Below are positions 3,319-27,122 of a stretch of 32,000 nucleotides of DNA, piece after piece. The position numbers were made by a program, and so were the translations under genes. The notes beneath the pieces are model-generated. The model worked only from the letters and a program-made list of their open reading frames with translations. It had not been told where the DNA came from and did no database searches. Position 1 is the first letter of the stretch, and each line of letters begins with the position of its first letter. Source of the stretch: an archaeon (GTDB lineage: Archaea > Iainarchaeota > Iainarchaeia > Iainarchaeales > CSSED10-239); contig JBBABY010000010.1 of the NCBI GenBank assembly GCA_041657425.1, forward strand, positions 1 to 32,000. The letters run 5' to 3'.

Positions 3319-4026
3319 ATGAATAAACAATTAAAACTAATTTTAGAGGATCTTAAGAAAAAAGGAGACTCCAAGAAAGCAATTGAACAGAAGAGATACC
3401 TTAAGAGTCCATATCAAATGTATGGAATTTGGGGAAAGGATCAAGATTCTGCAGTTAAGCAGTTTTATTTATTAAATAAGGAAATAGACAATAAAGAATT
3501 GTTTAAGATACTAGAAGATTTGTGGAAAAGTAAATGGCACACAGAGAAATCTTTTGCTATTGGTATTGCAACTTATTACACAGATCAATACACCGAGAAA
3601 GAATTATTGTTTTTTAAAAAATGGTTAGATGAATGTACTGGTTGGGACCACACAGATGGAATATCTGGATTTATTATTGCACGAATGGTTGTGGATAATT
3701 CTAAATTGAAAAAAGTCATCAATTCTTGGACAAAAGAGAATTGTATGTGGACAAGAAGGGCGAGTCTTATTAGTTATATAAGATCTTTAAGGAAAGACAA
3801 TAGAGATTTACAAGATGTTTTTAATAATATAAAACCATTAATGCATGAAAAGGAATTTTTTATAAGAAAAGCAATTGGCTGGGTATTAAGAGAAGCAAGT
3901 AAAAAATATTCAAAGGAAGTAATTGCTTTCGTTAAAGAAAATAAAGATGAACTTTCAAATCTTTCTAAAAGAGAAGCTCTAAAAACGATTTTATTAAAAA
4001 AAGAATTATCTAAGTATTTATCTTAG
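3319..4026 (+). CDS. DNA alkylation repair protein (AlkC/AlkD-like HEAT-repeat glycosylase family)
   Basis: Family hallmarks in order: EQKRYLKSPYQMYGI, LWKSKWHTEKSFAI, GWDHTDG, WTRRASLIS, FFIRKAIGWVLREASKKYSKEV, LSKREALK. Confidence 0.85.
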   Translation: MNKQLKLILEDLKKKGDSKKAIEQKRYLKSPYQMYGIWGKDQDSAVKQFYLLNKEIDNKELFKILEDLWKSKWHTEKSFAIGIATYYTDQYTEKELLFFKKWLDECTGWDHTDGISGFIIARMVVDNSKLKKVINSWTKENCMWTRRASLISYIRSLRKDNRDLQDVFNNIKPLMHEKEFFIRKAIGWVLREASKKYSKEVIAFVKENKDELSNLSKREALKTILLKKELSKYLS

Positions 4027-15894: not shown

Positions 15895-15920
15895 AATTAG
15901 TTACTATTGACTACAGGTGA
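15895..15920 (+). promoter_or_regulatory. Shared leader/operator box AATTAGTTACTATTGACTACAGGTGA upstream of the repeat-protein gene
   Basis: 23 of 26 nt are identical to 29641-29666 upstream of the SAM synthetase gene. It sits just downstream of a TATA-like ATATATATAATAAATA and includes the SD. Confidence 0.45.
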
Positions 15921-15925
15921 TATTT

Positions 15926-18220
15926 ATGAAGAAATTAAAAAAATCAGCAGTAAGTTTTAATAAAAAAGAAATAATGGATAAATTAAATAAACAGCTCAAT
16001 TTTCCAACTACTTTTGTTATTAGTCCAATTGATATATTCTTATTAAAAAAGAAAAAAATTGATATTAAAAATTATGCAAGAGACTTAAAGAAAGTAAATG
16101 CAAATCACACAATTTATCTTGGTATGAAATATAATATTACGGACTTAATGGACGCCGGATTTACCGATACTGAAATTAAGACGTTAGGTTTTACATTAAA
16201 TGAAAAGAAACCAGTTGTTAAAGTTGCAAAGAAACTAGTTGTTATAAAGAAAAAACCAGTTGTAATTAAGAAAAAACCAATCCTAAAAAAGGCAACTGCA
16301 AGTTTAAGCAAAAAAGAAATTGTTGATAAATTAAGTAAACAGCTTAATTCTCCAACCACTTTCTTAATCAGTCCAATAGATATCTCACTATTAAAGAAAA
16401 AGAAAATAAGCATTACAAGATATGCAAAAGACTTAAAAAAAGTAAAAGCAAATCACACAATTTATCTTGGAATGAAATATACAATTAAAGATTTAAAGAA
16501 TGCAGGATTTACAAATTTCGAAATTACAGAACTTGGGTTTAAAGCAGAAGAAAAGAAATCAGTTGTTAAAAAGAAAAAAGAAATTAAGAAAAAGCAATTA
16601 CCATTAATAGAACTTCTAAGAAAGAAAACTCCTGCAAGAAAATTACTTTCATTAGGTTATAACTATATAAAACTAAAACAAAGAAAATATACAGCAACTA
16701 AATTAAAAAAAATGAAATTCAGTTCTAAATATCTTTTTACGATTGGTTTTTCAGCAGCAGATTTACATAATGCAAAATATGCATTAGTGGAATTAAAGAA
16801 AGCAGGTTATTCTGCAAAGGAATTAAAAGCAATTGGCTATTTAGCTAAAGATTTATTAAAAGTAAAATATAGTGAAGATGTTGTCGCTTATGCACAGTAT
16901 CCCGCAAAGGAATTATATAAATTAGATTTCCCAGTTAAGAAATTAAAGATTGCAGGATATAAAGCAACTGAATTAATTGAAGCAGGATATACTTTAGAAG
17001 ATTTAAAGAAGGCATACACAATTAGAGAACTATTAGTTGCAGGATATACTCTTTTAGATTTAGTGGATAAAGAAAAAATAAATATACAGCAATTACTTGA
17101 TGAAGGCATAACTATTGCTGATCTTTTAAAAGAAGGATTTAGAATTAAAGAATTAACTCCAGTTGGCGTTACTGCTAAACAATTTAGAGAAGCAGGTGTA
17201 AGTTCAAGAGACATGTATAAAGTAGGATATTCTATAAGAGAACTAAAAGACGCAGGATATAAGTTAAAAGACTTATTTGATTTAAGAGATCTTTTAACAT
17301 TAAAAGAAAAGAAAGAAGAATTTAATTTAGAAGATTTAAGATATTTAAATTATTCTGCAAAAGAGTTACTTGGATTTGGGTATGCTCCTGCTGAGCTTTA
17401 TTTCTCTGGATATACCACTAAAGAATTATCAGATGCAGGACTTTCTTGTGTTCAGTTAATGGATGCTGGTTGTTCATTAAATGATATAAGATTAATCGGT
17501 TGTGGTTTAGCAGAATTTATTTCTAAAGGATATTTCGCAAAAGACTTAAAAAGAGCAGGATTTTCTGCAGTTGAGATTCATTTAGCAGGATATAGTTTAT
17601 ATGATTTAAGAGATGCAGAATTTAATGCAAAAGAATTACTTGGTATTGGATATTCAGCAAAACAATTTCATAATCTAGGATTTACTGCTAGAGAATTATA
17701 TTTTGCAGGATTTGGTTTACAAATAATAAAAGATGCAGGATATGGTGCTAAAGAACTTGCAGATTTAGATATTGATATAATTGAATTTGCAAATGCGGGA
17801 TATTCAGCAAAAGAAATGAGGGCTGCAAGTTACAGTGCTTATGATTTAAAGAAAGCATATCCAGCAAGAGAACTTAGACTTGCAGGTTTTGATGCTGCTT
17901 CTTTAAGGGATGCAGGGTACTCAGCAAAAGAATTACATGATGTTGGGTTCTTTCCAAGAGAATTATATTATGCAGGATATTCTGCAAAAGATGTTAATGG
18001 ACTAGGATATGGGCCAAGACAATTAAGAGTAATAAGATATACAGCAAAAGAATTAAAGCCAATAGGGTTTACTGCAAGAGAATTATATTCTGCAGGATAT
18101 AGTGCTGATCAATTAATCAAAGCAGGATATAGTTATAAGGACTTATCAGATCTTGGAGTAAGTCAAAGAAGACTACATAGACATCTTAGAATACACTCTA
18201 AAGGATATAATTTCTTTTAG
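15926..18220 (+). CDS. Large repeat protein: duplicated N-terminal module, Lys-rich linkers, then about 50 tandem decapeptide (aGYsakELkx) repeats
   Basis: Uninterrupted 767-codon frame. ATG 15926 with AGGTGA SD is preferred over GTG 15917. No signal peptide or TM segment seen. Confidence 0.75.
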   Translation: MKKLKKSAVSFNKKEIMDKLNKQLNFPTTFVISPIDIFLLKKKKIDIKNYARDLKKVNANHTIYLGMKYNITDLMDAGFTDTEIKTLGFTLNEKKPVVKVAKKLVVIKKKPVVIKKKPILKKATASLSKKEIVDKLSKQLNSPTTFLISPIDISLLKKKKISITRYAKDLKKVKANHTIYLGMKYTIKDLKNAGFTNFEITELGFKAEEKKSVVKKKKEIKKKQLPLIELLRKKTPARKLLSLGYNYIKLKQRKYTATKLKKMKFSSKYLFTIGFSAADLHNAKYALVELKKAGYSAKELKAIGYLAKDLLKVKYSEDVVAYAQYPAKELYKLDFPVKKLKIAGYKATELIEAGYTLEDLKKAYTIRELLVAGYTLLDLVDKEKINIQQLLDEGITIADLLKEGFRIKELTPVGVTAKQFREAGVSSRDMYKVGYSIRELKDAGYKLKDLFDLRDLLTLKEKKEEFNLEDLRYLNYSAKELLGFGYAPAELYFSGYTTKELSDAGLSCVQLMDAGCSLNDIRLIGCGLAEFISKGYFAKDLKRAGFSAVEIHLAGYSLYDLRDAEFNAKELLGIGYSAKQFHNLGFTARELYFAGFGLQIIKDAGYGAKELADLDIDIIEFANAGYSAKEMRAASYSAYDLKKAYPARELRLAGFDAASLRDAGYSAKELHDVGFFPRELYYAGYSAKDVNGLGYGPRQLRVIRYTAKELKPIGFTARELYSAGYSADQLIKAGYSYKDLSDLGVSQRRLHRHLRIHSKGYNFF
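15956..16540 (+). repeat. Two copies of an about 80-aa module, 351 nt (117 codons) apart, inside the repeat-protein gene
   Basis: KKEIMDKLNKQLNFPTTFVISPIDIFLLKKKKIDIKNYARDLKKVNANHTIYLGMKY... matches KKEIVDKLSKQLNSPTTFLISPIDISLLKKKKISITRYAKDLKKVKANHTIYLGMKY... The copies share an identical 23-nt run, gcaaatcacacaatttatcttgg. Confidence 0.85.
16637..18166 (+). repeat. 30-nt (10-codon) periodic coding repeat array, about 50 units
   Basis: Successive units include AGYSAKELKA, IGYLAKDLLK, AQYPAKELYK, AGYKATELIE, AGYTLEDLKK ... AGYSAKELHD, VGFFPRELYY, AGYSAKDVNG. GCAGGATAT recurs at the nucleotide level. Confidence 0.85.
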
Positions 18221-19461: not shown

Positions 19462-20727
19462 ATGAATAGTCCACTTTTATTTTTAGTGTTTATCGCAGGA
19501 ATATTTTTATTAGGATTTTTAGGGAATGTATTTTTTAGAAAAACAAAGATTTCAGATGTTTTTATATTAATTTTTATTGGTTTATTTTTAGGGCCTATAT
19601 TTCAAGTAGTCCCTCAAGCAACAATATTACAACTAAGGGAATATTCACCTATTTTTGCAGCAATTGCCTTAATTGTTTTAATTTTTGATGGAGGACTATA
19701 TCTTAATTTTTATAGAGTTATTACTGAAATAAAAAATGCATTTTTATTTACAATGCTAGTTTTTGTATTAACTTCTGTACTTTCTGGAGTGCTGTTACAT
19801 TTTGTTTTTGGATTTGAATGGATTTATGGTCTTTTATTAGGAGTAATTATTGGAGGAACGAGTTCAGAAATAATAATTCCGTTAGTTACAAAATCAAGTG
19901 CAACAGACCAAACAAAAACAATAATGACTTTAGAATCAGCAATAACTGATGTTTTATGTGTTGTTGCAACAGTTACTATTGTTGGAATAATTATTACTCA
20001 AGTTGCAAATACAAAATTAATTATTCAAGGGGTATTTTCTGCTTTTGCAATCGCCGCAGTTGTTGGCCTTATTGGAGGGATAATTTGGTCTAAAATTTTA
20101 AGAGACTCTGAAGATGTAAAAGGATTTAGTTACTTTCTTACGCTTTCGTTTTTATTTTTATTATATGCAGCAACTGAATTTTTAAGTGGTAATGGCGCAT
20201 TTTGTGTTTTAGTGTTTGGATTAGTGTTAGGCAATGCTTCGGACATATTTAAAACATTTAAGATGAAAGATTTCACTTTAGAAAAAAACATACACCATTT
20301 CCAAACGGAAATCTCACTAGTGATTAAAACTTTCTTTTTTATATATTTAGGAGTAATTATTGAATTTAAATATATAACTTTTGAAGTAATCTTAATAACT
20401 TTAGCATTAGTTGCTTTAATTATTATTTTAAGAATATTAATTACAAAACTATTATTTTTTAAAAATTTTGAAAAGAAAGACAAAGCTCTTATCGTTTCAT
20501 TACACACAAGAGGGTTAGCTGCTGCAGTACTTGCAACTTATCCGATAAGTATGGGAATTAACAATGCCTTTACTCAAAAAATAGTAGGTGTTTCATTATT
20601 AGTAATACTTATGACAAATGTAACAACTACAATATACTATTTTATAATAGAACACAAAAGTGATAGTGAAACAATAAATAAAAATTATTTATTAAAAAAA
20701 GACAAAAATAAAATGAGTAATAAATGA
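19462..20727 (+). CDS. Cation:proton antiporter (Na+/H+ exchanger family, CPA-type)
   Basis: About 12 TM helices and no soluble domain. ATG 19462 with GGAGAAACC SD is preferred over TTG 19426. Overall pattern is typical of Na_H_Exchanger proteins. Confidence 0.8.
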   Translation: MNSPLLFLVFIAGIFLLGFLGNVFFRKTKISDVFILIFIGLFLGPIFQVVPQATILQLREYSPIFAAIALIVLIFDGGLYLNFYRVITEIKNAFLFTMLVFVLTSVLSGVLLHFVFGFEWIYGLLLGVIIGGTSSEIIIPLVTKSSATDQTKTIMTLESAITDVLCVVATVTIVGIIITQVANTKLIIQGVFSAFAIAAVVGLIGGIIWSKILRDSEDVKGFSYFLTLSFLFLLYAATEFLSGNGAFCVLVFGLVLGNASDIFKTFKMKDFTLEKNIHHFQTEISLVIKTFFFIYLGVIIEFKYITFEVILITLALVALIIILRILITKLLFFKNFEKKDKALIVSLHTRGLAAAVLATYPISMGINNAFTQKIVGVSLLVILMTNVTTTIYYFIIEHKSDSETINKNYLLKKDKNKMSNK

Positions 20728-21743
20728 TTTCTAAAAAAGGGGTTTCTGAAATAATAGTTGTAACAATGGTTATTGTAGTTTCTATAATTATTGCAGGAAT
20801 ATTTTTTGTTTGGATTAATGAATATTTATCTAAGGATAAGTTAGATCAAACAGGTGGGGTACTATTACAAGCAAGCGATTTATCTTGTATGAATGTAAAG
20901 ATTAAAGTTGATTCTTGTACAATAAACAATGCAAATAAAGTTACTCAAATTTTAGTTACAAATAGTTCTGATTTAACTCTATTTAATTTTGTGCTTACAA
21001 TTGAAGGAAAGAATGTAAGTGGAACAGATATGACACTTATTGGAACATTTGATGAATCGGTTTCTGGAGGTCAAATAGTAAATCTATCGACAGATACTAA
21101 TTTTAATTATACAAGAGAAGACTTTGATTATTTTACTTTGGATACAAGTGAAATAACAAGCATGGTATTAACTAATGGGACTTGTCCTAAGAAATCAGAA
21201 ATTTTAGAATGCGAGATTATCGCAGGTCCATTAACCACACGCATTATTTCTCCAGAAGATGAAAAATATTATTTTTATGAAGACTCAATAGATTTCAATG
21301 CATACACAAGTGGAGGAAGTGAAGATTATAATTGTTCTTGGTCTTCAGATGTTGATGGCGAATTAGACACCGGTTGTAATCTTGCAATAGATACTTTAAA
21401 AAATTTAGGAGCACACACAATTACTTTAACAGTAACAGATGGAGAAAGTACAGAGATAGCAACCACAGGCATTACAATTAAAGACCACTTAGTACCAATC
21501 ATTTCATCTCCAGCAGACGAATCCATAGTTGCATTAGGAGCAATTGAGTTCTCTGGTTCAGTAAGTAACGCACAAGGAGAATACACTTGTTCTTGGACAT
21601 CAGATGTAGATGGTGCAATTGGATCAAGATGTGATTTTAATAAAAGTAATTTAACTCTTGGCGTGCACACCATTACTTTGACGGTAGCAGATGAATTAGA
21701 AACAAGAAGCACAACTGCAGATATTAATGTTTTAGCAGAATAG
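20724..21743 (+). CDS. Archaeal type IV pilin-like (class III signal peptide) surface protein with 2 PKD-like repeats; ends at an in-frame TAG
   Basis: N-terminus KKGVSEIIVVTMVIVVSIIIAGIFFVWI. Shared head domain SDLSC ... LTNGTCPKK. Two repeats: CSWSSDVDGELDTGC...LGAHTITLTVTDGES and CSWTSDVDGAIGSRC...LGVHTITLTVADELE. Confidence 0.8.
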   Translation: MISKKGVSEIIVVTMVIVVSIIIAGIFFVWINEYLSKDKLDQTGGVLLQASDLSCMNVKIKVDSCTINNANKVTQILVTNSSDLTLFNFVLTIEGKNVSGTDMTLIGTFDESVSGGQIVNLSTDTNFNYTREDFDYFTLDTSEITSMVLTNGTCPKKSEILECEIIAGPLTTRIISPEDEKYYFYEDSIDFNAYTSGGSEDYNCSWSSDVDGELDTGCNLAIDTLKNLGAHTITLTVTDGESTEIATTGITIKDHLVPIISSPADESIVALGAIEFSGSVSNAQGEYTCSWTSDVDGAIGSRCDFNKSNLTLGVHTITLTVADELETRSTTADINVLAE

Positions 21744-22742
21744 CCATGTATCACGGAAGGAGATGGCTCAGAAGAAAATCCATTTATTATTTGTACAATA
21801 GAAGACTTGAATAATGTAAGAAACGATTTAGAGGGTTATTATTTACTTGGTGCGGATATAGATATGAATGTTTCGCCATACAATGAAGGAGAAGGCTGGG
21901 AACCAATTGGAGATGCTTCTGCAGGATTTTTGGGAAATTTTGACGGCAATAATCACACAATAAATAATTTATACATTAATAGACCAGAAACAGATAATGT
22001 AGGATTATTTGGTTATATTATTAGTAATGTAATAAATAATGTAAAATTAGAAGATGTTAATGTTATAGGTCAAAATTATGTGGGGGGATTAGTTGGAATG
22101 AATAATCAGGGAACAATTTTCTCGAGTAATTCCATAGGAAATATTTATGGAATTGGGGGAGTTATTGGTGGTTTAGTTGGGTATATAGAACTGGGAGAGA
22201 TAACTAATTGTTTTTCAAATTCTGTAGTCACTGGAAGAAATAGTGTTGGTACATTAATTGGATCTGGTTTTCAAAGTATCGTCGTAGAAAGTTATTCAAC
22301 AGGGTCTGCAATAGGAGAAGAAAGTGTAGGAGGAATGATTGGACTCGACGAAAGTGGAACATTTGAAAATTGTTATTCATTAAGTAATATAACACGTATA
22401 TCTGATTCTAGTGAAACATCTTTTGGTGGGTTTATAGGATATACAGAAGGCTGGACAGATATTAACAATAGTTATTCAATAGGAAGAGTAATTTATGAAG
22501 ATACATCAAATCCAACAAATAAAGGATTTTCTGGAGATGCAATCAATGGTTACAATAATTTTTGGGATATGAATACATCATTGCAAACAACAAGTGATGA
22601 TGGAGCAATTGGTTTAACAACAGAACAAATGAAAGATCCAAATAATTTTACTGATTGGGATTTCGACACCATCTGGGATATTAATGAAGGAACAACTTAT
22701 CCTTATTTAAGAAATAATATTCCAAGTTCTTTGCCTCAGTAA
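21744..22742 (+). CDS. GLUG-motif repeat domain ORF without its own start codon or signal peptide; in frame with the preceding pilin/PKD gene
   Basis: Lead-in GDGSEENPFIICTIEDLNNVRNDLEGYYLLGADID, then VGGLVGMNNQG, IGGLVGYIELG, VGGMIGLDESG and FGGFIGYTEG repeats. Same frame as 20724-21743. Only TTG 21807 or ATG 21864 are available as starts, and both lie inside the module. Confidence 0.7.
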   Translation, partial: PCITEGDGSEENPFIICTIEDLNNVRNDLEGYYLLGADIDMNVSPYNEGEGWEPIGDASAGFLGNFDGNNHTINNLYINRPETDNVGLFGYIISNVINNVKLEDVNVIGQNYVGGLVGMNNQGTIFSSNSIGNIYGIGGVIGGLVGYIELGEITNCFSNSVVTGRNSVGTLIGSGFQSIVVESYSTGSAIGEESVGGMIGLDESGTFENCYSLSNITRISDSSETSFGGFIGYTEGWTDINNSYSIGRVIYEDTSNPTNKGFSGDAINGYNNFWDMNTSLQTTSDDGAIGLTTEQMKDPNNFTDWDFDTIWDINEGTTYPYLRNNIPSSLPQ

Positions 22743-22804
22743 CTAAAAGCTTTTTTAAAAGTTATATTTATAAAATAATTCTCCTTCTATATTAATGATA
22801 GAAT

Positions 22805-24154
22805 ATGATTAAAACAAATAAAGGCGCATCAGAGGTTATTGTTGTAACTTTAATTATTGTGGTTACAGTAATCCTTGCAGGTATTTTCTTTGCTTGGCTT
22901 AAGGAATCTTCAAATACACAATTAGATCAAACATCAATGCAATTAAAAGAAGCAAGTGATTTGTCTTGCAGCAATGCTACATTTAAGATTGAATCTTTTG
23001 ATTTAGACGAAGTAAATAGAAAGATTAGTTTTGTTTTATCAAACAACTCTGATTTAAAAATTTTTAATTTGATTTTGTCAGTTCAAGGGAAAGATGCAGA
23101 AGGTGTTGATTTAAAAATTAGTGGAAGATTTGATACAATTGTTGAATCTGGACAAATGGTTTCACTTTCAACAGATTCCAATTTCACTTATATTTCTGGA
23201 GATATATCAGCTTTAGGAACATTAGATTTTGGGAATTTAACAAATATCACTTTAACAAACGGAACATGTCCTAAAAAGATTTTATTAATTGATAGTTATG
23301 ATTTAACTTTAATTCAAAGTGATTTAGTTGCAGACCCAAATGCAGATACGTTTTTTGAATCTCAAAACATAACTTTATCGTCAGAAGAAGGAGCAACAAT
23401 ATATTACACAACAGATGGGAGCGATCCAACAATCGAAAGCGAAGTTTATGTTTCTCCAATTAATATTCCTTTAGATACTGTTATAACAATAAACGCAATT
23501 TCGGTTAAGCCAAATTATGAGACTAAAGATTTTACAGGAAAATACACAGTAACCCATATTCTTGCAACGCCGACTGCTGACCCCGAACCTTATGAATTTA
23601 CAAGGCCAATAGAAGTTAGATTATTTGCAGAAGACGGTGCAACTATTTACTATACTCTTGATTCAAGTATACCTGGCGGAAAATCTATGCTATATGAATC
23701 TCCTATACTAATTAATTCCACAACAGTAATAAATGCAATAGCTGTGAGGGATGGATATGGGGATAGTGATCTGTTTACTGGCACATATACTTCTTTAGAA
23801 AGTTATACTTTAGAATATAACACTTCATCTGGGGTTTTAACATTAGAATTAATTCCAGATTTATCTATTCCGCTTAGTAATAATATAGCATTTAGATATT
23901 TTGGTGCTTTTAAGGATCCTATAAGTACTTCTGCTTCAGCTGCTACTACTTCAGGTTTTCTAGAGGCTAATCCTAGTCCATACGAATTTAAAGACTGTAG
24001 GCTAATTAGATTTGATTGTGAGCAGTTGGCTTTAGATATAGGTATGAACGACGTAGATAGATTTGAGATAATTGAAATACCAGATAAAGGGAGCATTAAT
24101 GTTTTGATTACAATTTTACCCGATGATATTACAATAGTTTCTGATAAGAAGTGA
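22805..24154 (+). CDS. Archaeal type IV pilin-like surface protein with two chitobiase/hexosaminidase-C-like (GATIYYT.D) repeats and a unique C-terminal domain
   Basis: N-terminus NKGASEVIVVTLIIVVTVILAGIFFAWL. Paralogous head domain (SDLSC ... LTNGTCPKK). Repeats EEGATIYYTTDGSDPT...VITINAISV and EDGATIYYTLDSSIPG...TVINAIAV. Confidence 0.8.
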   Translation: MIKTNKGASEVIVVTLIIVVTVILAGIFFAWLKESSNTQLDQTSMQLKEASDLSCSNATFKIESFDLDEVNRKISFVLSNNSDLKIFNLILSVQGKDAEGVDLKISGRFDTIVESGQMVSLSTDSNFTYISGDISALGTLDFGNLTNITLTNGTCPKKILLIDSYDLTLIQSDLVADPNADTFFESQNITLSSEEGATIYYTTDGSDPTIESEVYVSPINIPLDTVITINAISVKPNYETKDFTGKYTVTHILATPTADPEPYEFTRPIEVRLFAEDGATIYYTLDSSIPGGKSMLYESPILINSTTVINAIAVRDGYGDSDLFTGTYTSLESYTLEYNTSSGVLTLELIPDLSIPLSNNIAFRYFGAFKDPISTSASAATTSGFLEANPSPYEFKDCRLIRFDCEQLALDIGMNDVDRFEIIEIPDKGSINVLITILPDDITIVSDKK

Positions 24155-24159
24155 AAAGA

Positions 24160-24663
24160 ATGTTTAAACTAAATAATAAAGGTGCTTCAGAAGTAATAGT
24201 AGTGACTTTAATAATTGTTATTTCTGTAATCTTAGCTGGGCTTTTCTTTTCTTGGCTTAAAGAGTCTTCTAAACAGAATATGGATGATGCAAGTAGTGCA
24301 CTTGTTAATTCAAGTGATGTTTCTTGTATAGATGCTAAGTTTTTAGTTGATTCTTGTGATATTAATAGTACAAGTAGAGTAACTAAATTAATGTTTACTA
24401 ATAATTCTGATTTAAAAATATTTAATATAGTGCTTACTATTGAAGGGAAGAATGTAAGTGGAACAGATATGACACTTATTGGTAGATTTGAAGATGTTGT
24501 TAGTGGTGGAGAAGTAATTGAATTATCCACAGATACTAACTTTACTTACACTAGACAAGATTCTGATTATAATACTTTAGACACTAGTGAGATAAGTAAT
24601 ATGGTTCTAACTAATGGAACTTGCCCAAAGAAGGCAGTTGTACTTAATTGTATTGTTAACTAG
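24160..24663 (+). CDS. Archaeal type IV pilin-like protein, head domain only (short paralogue)
   Basis: NKGASEVIVVTLIIVISVILAGLFFSWL. LTIEGKNVSGTDMTLIG is identical to the 20724 paralogue. ATG 24160 is preferred over GTG 24151. Confidence 0.8.
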   Translation: MFKLNNKGASEVIVVTLIIVISVILAGLFFSWLKESSKQNMDDASSALVNSSDVSCIDAKFLVDSCDINSTSRVTKLMFTNNSDLKIFNIVLTIEGKNVSGTDMTLIGRFEDVVSGGEVIELSTDTNFTYTRQDSDYNTLDTSEISNMVLTNGTCPKKAVVLNCIVN

Positions 24664-26151: not shown

Positions 26152-26314
26152 TTAAATTTTCAGAGTATTTTACACTAAATATTGGACAATCCCCAGTTAA
26201 AAAAAATAAATATTTATAAACTTATCGCAGCATAATATGATTATTATATTAAATAACTTCTATAAGTTATTAAAATATATTATTATTAAAAAAAATTAAA
26301 AAATGGAGATTAAA

Positions 26315-26644
26315 ATGAAAAATGAAAAAACAAAATTAATCATTTGGGCAGTGGTTGCTTTAGTGATTGGTGTAATAATCGGGCTATTATTAACAAATGT
26401 TGTGTCTGGCAATACAACAAAAGTAATGAATACGAAATTTAACAAAAACCCATTTAATGACACCGTGGGTGCATGTTGTAAAAATACATTAAACCAGTAT
26501 ACTTCTATTGAATCTGCATCTTGTTGTGTTGTTATTGGGCGCCAAGGCTATGATCCAGAAACTCCATTAAATGAATTAGGTAGTGTATTGCCACCCGGAT
26601 TTAATTATCTGTGGGATGATCCTATATTTGATCACCCTTTATAA
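26315..26644 (+). CDS. Small membrane-anchored/secreted Cys-containing protein (paralogue A)
   Basis: MKNEKTKLIIWAVVALVIGVIIGLLL anchor. CC...CC pairs (GACCKN, SASCCVV). The leader AAAAAATGGAGAT is shared with paralogue B. Confidence 0.55.
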   Translation: MKNEKTKLIIWAVVALVIGVIIGLLLTNVVSGNTTKVMNTKFNKNPFNDTVGACCKNTLNQYTSIESASCCVVIGRQGYDPETPLNELGSVLPPGFNYLWDDPIFDHPL

Positions 26645-26852: not shown

Positions 26853-27122
26853 ATGAAAAACGAGAAAATGAAATGGTACATTTTAATTGCTGCAGCTTTA
26901 TTAGTTGGAGCAATAATTGGATACTTTGCGACTGCAAACTTATCTACGACAGGAAATGCATGTCAGAATTTAAACAATCTTAATGGCATAGTTGTTGATG
27001 CAGAAGAAGGCTATTTTATATCTTATGAAGACTGCATAGGTGGCGGCGGGTCAGCCCCAGGATATCCTCGTAGAAGGATTTGTTTTAAATCGGATCATAC
27101 AACAGAAATGATACCAAAATAA
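26853..27122 (+). CDS. Small membrane-anchored/secreted Cys-containing protein (paralogue B)
   Basis: MKNEKMKWYILIAAALLVGAIIGYF anchor and 3 Cys. Same AAAAAATGGAGATGAAAATAAAATG leader as paralogue A. Confidence 0.55.
   Translation: MKNEKMKWYILIAAALLVGAIIGYFATANLSTTGNACQNLNNLNGIVVDAEEGYFISYEDCIGGGGSAPGYPRRRICFKSDHTTEMIPK

Follow-up and report, generated by a model that had tools for sequence, protein, structure and literature searches.

The stretch of DNA analysed here (the window) comprises the first 32,000 nucleotides (nt) of contig JBBABY010000010.1 in assembly GCA_041657425.1, from an archaeon of the Iainarchaeota. Our subject is a pair of open reading frames (ORFs) in this window that are separated by a single in-frame amber codon and that, read together, would specify a pilin-anchored surface protein ending in a GLUG-repeat domain. 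The window has a G+C content (GC) of 28% and is ordinary archaeal chromosome, with genes for thymidylate synthase, dihydrofolate reductase, diphthamide synthase, GlmS, diadenylate cyclase, an Na+/H+ exchanger and an archaeal-type S-adenosylmethionine synthetase. Its nearest named syntenic relative is a Candidatus Diapherotrites metagenome-assembled genome (MAG; phylum Iainarchaeota, kingdom Nanobdellati, i.e. DPANN). The upstream ORF starts at an ATG (20724) that overlaps the TGA of the Na+/H+ exchanger gene (ATGA) and ends, 339 codons later, at TAG 21741-21743. Past this codon the same frame stays open for 332 more codons, without a further stop, to TAA 22740-22742. An earlier note, made from the sequence alone, had described this arrangement, and its coordinates and peptides were confirmed: PCITEGDGSEENPFIICTIEDLNNVRNDLEGYYLLGADIDMN, VGGLVGMNNQG and the other peptides quoted are all present in the sequence. 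The elements of the locus are as follows.

20724..21743, + strand: upstream ORF, 339 codons plus TAG (pilin-like N-terminus with class III signal, beta head, two PKD/immunoglobulin (Ig)-like domains); deposited as hypothetical protein WCX82_00225.
20724..20888, + strand: class III (prepilin-type) signal KKG/VSEIIVV... and long hydrophobic alpha-1 helix, residues 1-55; helices 6-34 and 37-55 in the AlphaFold2 (AF2) model; weak Pilin_N match.
20901..21221, + strand: beta-sandwich head domain (...TNGTCPKK...), common to two downstream paralogous pilin genes; 77% nucleotide identity to 24311-24632; AF2.
21234..21482, + strand: PKD/Ig-like domain 1, residues 171-253; internal repeat; AF2; hundreds of matches to PKD-repeat proteins.
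21492..21734, + strand: PKD/Ig-like domain 2 (PKD2), residues 257-337; PKD_4 match; AF2 strand 327-337.
21741..21743, + strand: in-frame amber codon TAG, next base C; lies in the short linker that joins PKD2 to the GLUG lead-in; identical in contigs L001, L008 and L095.
21744..22742, + strand: 332 codons plus TAA that continue the frame with no start of their own and encode a complete GLUG module (right-handed beta-helix); Glug match, homologues, AF2, Foldseek.
21744..21848, + strand: module lead-in and N-terminal cap, with conserved Cys2, G8, P13, I16 and Cys17; strand 14-16, helix 19-27 and strand 32-35; alignments and AF2.
21807..21809, + strand: TTG annotated by NCBI PGAP as start codon of 'WCX82_00220' (311 aa); lies midway along cap helix 19-27.
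21864..21866, + strand: ATG, the Prodigal-type start (292 aa), with which the whole N-terminal cap is lost; marginal GGTG 11 nt upstream.
22751..22756, + strand: T6 run immediately past the TAA that closes the GLUG part.

At 28% GC, 332 stop-free codons would arise by chance with P ~2e-14, and the other five frames of the GLUG stretch contain 17-34 stops each. Thus, the open frame after the TAG is not a product of chance.

The two halves of the putative protein were characterized separately. In the N-terminal half, no Pfam model reached its threshold. Pilin_N (PF07790) scored 14 bits (E = 0.097) against a cut-off of 25.2 bits, a value just missed by kin of this gene as well (24.7 bits in the paralogue at 22805-24154, 22.5 bits in P0248), and the PKD models matched the second repeat only, again below threshold (PKD_4, 24.4 vs 27 bits; PKD, 19.7 vs 23.5 bits). 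The leader, MISKKG/VSEIIVVTMVIVVSIIIAGIFFVW, is short and basic, ends in the K/R-G/A motif and is followed by a hydrophobic stretch, as befits a pilin-type N-terminus. The AlphaFold model of this half (mean predicted local distance difference test score, pLDDT, 86.6) consists of a long N-terminal helix (6-55), a beta-sandwich head (60-166) and two Ig-like domains (171-253 and 257-337), the latter forming an internal repeat of 40% identity (E = 1e-15). An exhaustive HMMER search returned 807 proteins at E <= 1e-10, the best-scoring of which matched at several stretches over the PKD region (residues 160-339); proteins found in a word-indexed search carry precomputed PKD Pfam domains, and the best Foldseek matches of the model are strings of tandem Ig-like domains. 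Repeat, model and kin therefore support the homology of the Ig-like domains to PKD repeats, as well as the pilin-like nature of the N-terminus, despite the sub-threshold Pfam scores. The class III signal and paired PKD domains proposed in the earlier note were upheld on these grounds and not by the Pfam cut-offs.

For the C-terminal half, the GLUG model (PF07581) scored 35.6 bits over two stretches, above the gathering threshold of 20.5, as the earlier note had anticipated. The module is complete, running from a lead-in of the form GxG...P[FY].I...DL..[VI]RN...DID through V/IGGLVG rungs to a C-terminal WDF...YPYL cap, and its end, ...YPYLRNNIPSSLPQ*, is that of the closest homologues, i.e. a native C-terminus. 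AF2 predicted a right-handed beta-helix with high confidence (pLDDT 94.9; predicted template modelling score 0.93). A search of the PDB by sequence gave no match, whereas the fold search did: the top Foldseek match was 3n6z, a 'putative IgA1 protease' of Bacteroides ovatus (template modelling (TM) score 0.64, E = 7e-10), and the structural kin include the beta-helix domain of streptococcal IgA1 proteases (6xjb, 7uvk). The likeness to known GLUG systems thus extends over the above-threshold Pfam match, the lead-in, the rungs, the cap and the predicted fold. The differences are that no protease domain is attached here and that an archaeal pilin anchor stands in place of the bacterial signal and LPXTG or type IX secretion system sorting domain found there. 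GLUG modules are barely covered in the literature and their function has been little studied. The GC content at third codon positions of the GLUG part is 0.163, like that of host genes, and that of the whole focal gene lies at 0.15-0.17.

How the GLUG part could be translated depends on its lead-in. No ATG, GTG or TTG occurs in frame between the TAG and TTG 21807; this TTG and ATG 21864 are the first canonical starts after the stop, as had been claimed, and both cut into the module. TTG 21807 corresponds to residue 22 of the C-terminal half, midway through helix 19-27 of the AF2 cap, while ATG 21864 corresponds to residue 41 and entails the loss of strand 14-16, the helix and strand 32-35. No signal peptide was found before the GLUG lead-in. 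A sequence resembling a Shine-Dalgarno (SD) site, GGAAGGAG, lies at 21755-21762, but no in-frame start is within its reach. Among 80 GLUG loci from GTDB, the match to the module sets in at query residue 1-14 in nearly all cases, ahead of both candidate starts. In a 30-sequence alignment, G8 of the lead-in is at least 90% conserved, and the three closest sequences all share an invariant C2, P13, I16 and C17. A weak Peptidase_M26_N match to the C-terminal half begins at residue 22; this is the edge of a local alignment and not a domain boundary. Failure of the GLUG model to cover residues encoded upstream of 21807, which the earlier note had regarded as grounds for rejecting a single gene, turned out to say nothing on the matter, because PF07581 describes a repeat of 28 residues and does not extend over the lead-in of any protein. 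Homologue alignment and structure model are the proper tests of the lead-in, and both were positive.

These observations bear on the public annotations, which call two genes. In that case, reinitiation or an internal promoter would allow translation of the GLUG protein from TTG 21807 or ATG 21864, and the protein would function without a signal peptide. The marginal GGTG ahead of ATG 21864 fits such a scheme, and signal-less GLUG proteins do exist (L043, L057 and L073). All three start before an intact lead-in, however, whereas both starts available here delete conserved residues and confidently folded elements of the cap. Moreover, homology reaches to within two codons of the TAG, and the closest homologues are pilin-anchored. 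Two separate functional genes thus seem distinctly improbable.

The homologues indicate what the two ORFs are instead. The closest relatives of the C-terminal half, P0050 and P0058, as well as P0002, P0001 and P0016, are single polypeptides in which an archaeal class-III-type leader and a head are followed directly by GLUG; identity to the pilin-anchored P0050 and P0058 is 46-47% by BLASTP and about 50% in the MAFFT alignment. In the conceptual fusion, the residues flanking the amber codon read ...DINVLAE-X-PCITEGDGSEENPF..., and BLASTP alignments of the fusion to P0050, P0058, P0002 and P0001 cross the stop, extending from query residues 309, 327, 335 and 327, respectively, through 664-672. 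They pair Cys342, two codons past the TAG, and the NPFIIC motif with conserved residues of the lead-in (..DLVCLGINDNGSGTSEEDPIVICSVDDLNNVRN..). The exhaustive HMMER search identified two distant relatives, from other archaea, with the same cassette of pilin, head and two PKD domains, P0248 (742 aa) and P0244 (1,286 aa), both of which run past PKD2 without a stop. The distal part of P0248, which has the inter-PKD linker IKDHLVP[IV]I in common with the focal gene, is an FGE-sulfatase-like domain, and that of P0244 consists of three Gly_rich_2 domains interleaved with further PKD domains. No relative terminating after PKD2 was found among the matches listed. Since the listed relatives always continue past PKD2, the PKD pair is taken to be a stalk that presents a variable distal domain, here the GLUG helix; the differing distal domains of P0248 and P0244 suggest that pilin-anchored display proteins form a modular family. 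P0077 has a contiguous PKD-to-GLUG junction, its linker being about as short. Finally, no T-run occurs within 180 nt after the TAG, and the sole oligo-T near the gene ends, the T6 run at 22751..22756, comes after the GLUG TAA and, on the analogy of other archaea, is read as terminator-like.

Four independent lines of evidence, namely the cross-stop alignments, the conserved lead-in, the confident fold and the continuing PKD relatives, agree with the earlier proposal that the GLUG part is a continuation of the pilin/PKD gene. That the two ORFs are, or were, one gene for a pilin/PKD/GLUG surface protein is well supported: a single in-frame stop interrupts a region homologous to uninterrupted proteins, and the distal part has no independent start. 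In the model, residue 337 closes the last PKD2 strand, and codon 340 is the stop. The TAG thus stands two residues past that strand and two before the conserved Cys, inside the interdomain linker. A different history would make the TAG the native stop of a complete pilin-PKD gene, beside which recombination or deletion had placed a 5'-truncated remnant of a pilin-GLUG gene, in frame by chance. The setting is one in which this might happen, as the gene lies in a recombining cluster of paralogues, its pilin and head are 75-77% identical to neighbours and it is absent in relatives; in addition, P0050 and P0058 carry the GLUG module right after the pilin head and not after PKD domains. Such an event would nevertheless have required an in-frame breakpoint one codon from the conserved Cys, with zero intergenic residues. 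As every listed relative with the cassette continues past PKD2 and the contiguous short-linker junction exists in P0077, we regard juxtaposition as improbable.

The stop itself is real. The same TAG, with identical sequence around it, occurs in NCBI MAG GCA_041678985.1 (contig JBAYND010000001.1, 65,341 bp, of which the window forms part), in ENA MEGAHIT contig ERZ27247350 k141_397045 (31 kb, L001) and in Logan contig SRR18595299_279350, which comes from another run, was seen in two samples and matches the window at 100% identity over 3,464 bp. The three assemblies come from different pipelines; all are metagenomic consensus sequences, and the underlying runs may overlap. The local sequence, GCAGAATAGCCATGT, contains no homopolymer and no direct or inverted repeat spanning the TAG. 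An assembly error, one of the explanations raised in the earlier note, is therefore essentially excluded, and that the true codon is a sense codon misread in sequencing or assembly is extremely improbable. No slippery site was found, and with no repeat or homopolymer at the TAG a phase-variable adhesin is not supported. A wild-carded DNA scan for sense alleles (GTTTTAGCAGAANNNCCATGTATCACGGAAGG) gave 0 matches in JGI metagenome contigs and 0 in GTDB genome contigs. Nor did word-indexed protein searches, run with the fused protein and with a 112-mer centred on the junction, yield a sense-codon variant; they were weak searches, as both also missed the known database members P0121, P0171 and P0173, whose sequences the queries contained. 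The TAG allele is the consensus in every available assembly of the population.

To see how TAG is used, stop codons were tallied for the 51 genes of the window and ~18 kb of flanking sequence (~50 kb in all). Besides the focal gene there are 50, of which 11 end in TAG, with in-frame extensions of at most 23 codons; one of the 11, the gene for 1-deoxy-D-xylulose 5-phosphate (DXP) reductoisomerase, ends in TAG-C, the same tetranucleotide as at the focal site. TAG being the normal stop of these 11 genes, reassignment across the window was rejected, and the local recoding considered earlier is not supported. No tRNA genes or Rfam elements were detected in this region, and no pyl genes were present among the proteins scanned or listed; the search for a tRNA with a CUA anticodon or for pyl genes, proposed in the earlier note, thus came back empty for these ~50 kb of contig. 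Decoding of the TAG as an amino acid, through pyrrolysine (Pyl) or a suppressor tRNA, must still be set against what is known of Pyl users, as Pyl-positive archaea are not always depleted of TAG and read UAG ambiguously (PMC12626013). TAG frequency alone is for this reason weak evidence, and the shortness of the extensions is the better argument. Pyl strongly co-occurs with methylamine and methane metabolism (PMC12626013), which would not be expected in a DPANN-type genome. Taken with the 11 TAG-ended genes and the lack of pyl genes and tRNAs in these ~50 kb, this makes amino acid insertion at the TAG scarcely credible.

A separate case of an in-frame TAG came to light in L055, a Methanosarcinaceae archaeon MAG (CAXXJW010000001.1), where at ~nt 3935-3940 of the locus the codon lies inside a long multi-module GLUG ORF (...WDFDTIWDICYNATSS*NDGYPYLLNN...) with homology on both sides. 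Since Methanosarcinaceae are Pyl users with ambiguous UAG (PMC12626013), that TAG could reflect Pyl insertion, readthrough or a pseudogene.

A further possibility is that the UAG is leaky, or programmed to be read through. Translation would then yield mostly the 339-aa pilin-PKD protein and, in a minority of cases, a 671-residue form with the GLUG helix, made by a near-cognate tRNA at UAG-C, so that the filament or surface would carry a bulky adhesin sparsely. Viral structural proteins extended by readthrough, such as the A1 minor coat protein of Q-beta, offer an analogy, and only that: there, too, a single leaky stop yields a short subunit in abundance and, rarely, a C-terminally extended form, at conserved sites where readthrough has been experimentally shown. 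Several features of the locus would suit this scheme. The downstream ORF is fully intact and has host-like codon use, the stop falls precisely between two domains, in a linker that would tolerate any inserted residue, the +4 base is C, TAG is the sole allele seen in the three assemblies, and transcription appears to reach the T-run past the GLUG part. On the other hand, no stimulatory RNA structure was apparent, the minimum free energy of the sequence after the stop (-16.5 kcal/mol) being no better than that of shuffled sequences (z = +0.81), and the stop context is shared with the housekeeping gene that ends normally at TAG-C. Nor is a stop found at the equivalent junction in any orthologue or paralogue. 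Among ~150 module N-termini in the 80 loci, the window alone has a stop directly before a start-less lead-in with an in-frame upstream domain ORF, so that nothing in these sequences suggests a conserved design of a stop before GLUG. The intactness of the ORF is, besides, equally explained by recency.

Precedents in archaea differ as well. The -1 frameshift of fucA1 in S. solfataricus and the redefinition of stop codons for selenocysteine (Sec) and Pyl resemble the present case in that two adjacent ORFs encode one protein, with the break between recognisable halves (PMC8211752, PMC1616953). The fucA1 gene has a slippery heptamer and a conserved arrangement, whereas the stop described here has no conservation record; Sec requires a selenocysteine insertion sequence (SECIS) element and Pyl requires pylTSBCD, while no pyl genes lie in the ~50 kb here. 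Stop-codon readthrough in archaea has been established only for Sec and Pyl (PMC8211752). With no positive evidence and no RNA structure, the programmed readthrough entertained in the earlier note was not borne out, and functional readthrough of either kind appears unlikely. The narrower proposition, that a DPANN-type archaeon uses leaky UAG decoding at a stalk-GLUG linker, independently of Sec and Pyl, to make an abundant short and a rare long, adhesin-bearing subunit, is rather doubtful. It would be remarkable if true, as the other explanations would not, and would matter much more than they do because functional UAG readthrough without Pyl is not established in Archaea.

The history of the locus can be read from the pilin cluster at 20724-24663, which contains two paralogues downstream of the focal gene.

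22805..24154, + strand: paralogue with pilin N-terminus, head and two CHB_HEX_C/Fn3_assoc domains; kept in both syntenic relatives.
24151..24663, + strand: paralogue with pilin N-terminus and head only, 170 aa.

The pilin and head of the focal gene are 75-77% identical in nucleotide sequence to those of these neighbours. The gene itself is absent from both syntenic relatives, L096 (82% nucleotide identity; 81% amino-acid identity for the neighbouring gene) and the more distant Diapherotrites set L002-L007. In both, the CHB_HEX pilin gene directly follows the exchanger, with the same ATGA overlap in L096. No orthologue was found: a word-indexed search with the N-terminal half returned only the protein itself, and the exhaustive HMMER search only distant relatives with the cassette. 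Absence from the syntenic relatives, together with the shared pilin and head, indicates that the focal gene is a lineage-specific chimera in which a duplicated pilin and head were joined to the PKD pair and GLUG. Archaeal class-III-signal proteins with Ig-fold or beta-helical adhesin-like domains are a recognised class (preprint 10.64898/2026.04.22.720090). The gene resembles them in its prepilin-type N-terminus, its beta domain followed by Ig-fold and beta-helical modules, and its place in a cluster of paralogous pilin genes; it differs in being interrupted and in having no assembly ATPase, platform protein or prepilin peptidase within ~50 kb of contig. In the literature we found no description of the combination of head, two PKD domains and GLUG, nor any paper combining GLUG, pilin and archaea.

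The cluster turns over quickly. The overlap with the exchanger stop lies at 20724-20727 in the window and at 1226-1229 in L096, though the first pilin gene differs; the exchanger junction is thus conserved while the gene behind it has been replaced. Downstream of the short pilin gene, the relatives have genes for secreted proteins of 311 aa and 868 aa, while in the window an 80-aa ORF and then a PIN-domain gene occupy this place.

The state of the GLUG part gives an idea of the age of the interruption. If this part is untranslated, 5.0% of possible substitutions in it create a stop (7.1% with AT-biased mutation), so that the probability of its still being open would be down to 0.5 at ~1.35% neutral divergence and 0.05 at ~5.8%. 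Given this rapid fall, either the event was very recent or the ORF is still under selection.

On balance we favour, as the probable explanation, that a young gene for a pilin-anchored adhesin recently acquired a nonsense substitution in its PKD2-GLUG linker, leaving a 339-aa pilin-PKD protein and an untranslated, intact GLUG remnant. The ancestral single gene would have encoded a class III signal and alpha-1 helix, a beta head, a stalk of two PKD domains and a distal GLUG beta-helix, and would have suffered one nonsense substitution in the linker of about four residues. TAG is one step from TTG, CAG, GAG, AAG, TCG, TGG and TAY, and near that position homologues carry Leu, Ile or Val. Because the stop is in the linker, translation would end after PKD2 and give a domain-complete protein of 339 aa, which presumably is still made and could still be exported and processed, without its distal beta-helix. 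The 996-nt GLUG remnant would go untranslated beyond basal, unprogrammed readthrough. It shows no decay, having no stops, its native C-terminus and host-like third-position GC, and we propose that it is intact because the mutation is recent. Among the explanations listed in the earlier note, a very recent nonsense mutation is thus the one that fits best, its suggested link to phase variation falling away for want of a repeat or homopolymer. Some observations weigh against the idea of a mutation as opposed to a regulated site. A perfectly intact remnant of 332 codons is equally expected under selection on a readthrough product. TAG-C is a weak termination context by a rule derived from bacteria and eukaryotes, which may not hold for archaea. 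No orthologue was found that could reveal the ancestral codon and no sense-codon allele turned up in any dataset searched, so that the mutation itself has not been observed.

Elsewhere in the window, a 767-aa decapeptide-repeat protein (PF25296, 406 bits, 11 stretches) is encoded at 15917-18220 (+ strand). Its counterparts in L002-L004 have differing or split calls (709, 751 and 63+659 aa), which suggests variation in repeat number or frame between populations. Over 21 kb, the sole difference between L001 and the window is a 7-nt indel, AAAATGA, at ~26312-26318, 4.5 kb from the TAG. It lies at the 5' end of ORF 26303-26644, which encodes a small membrane-anchored protein, and alters its N-terminus and start; a paralogous small ORF (26853-27122) follows.

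For the annotation of the locus, these results imply that WCX82_00225 and WCX82_00220 are best regarded as parts of a single disrupted gene. Neither the 311-aa nor the 292-aa product is likely to exist, and the public annotation is probably wrong for the second protein. On the likeliest reading, the locus captures surface-protein genes of an ultrasmall archaeon in the course of rapid birth and death: a chimera of pilin and adhesin is missing from a relative at 82% nucleotide identity, and yet has already lost its distal domain to a nonsense mutation. As such, it bears on how DPANN cells vary their adhesins.

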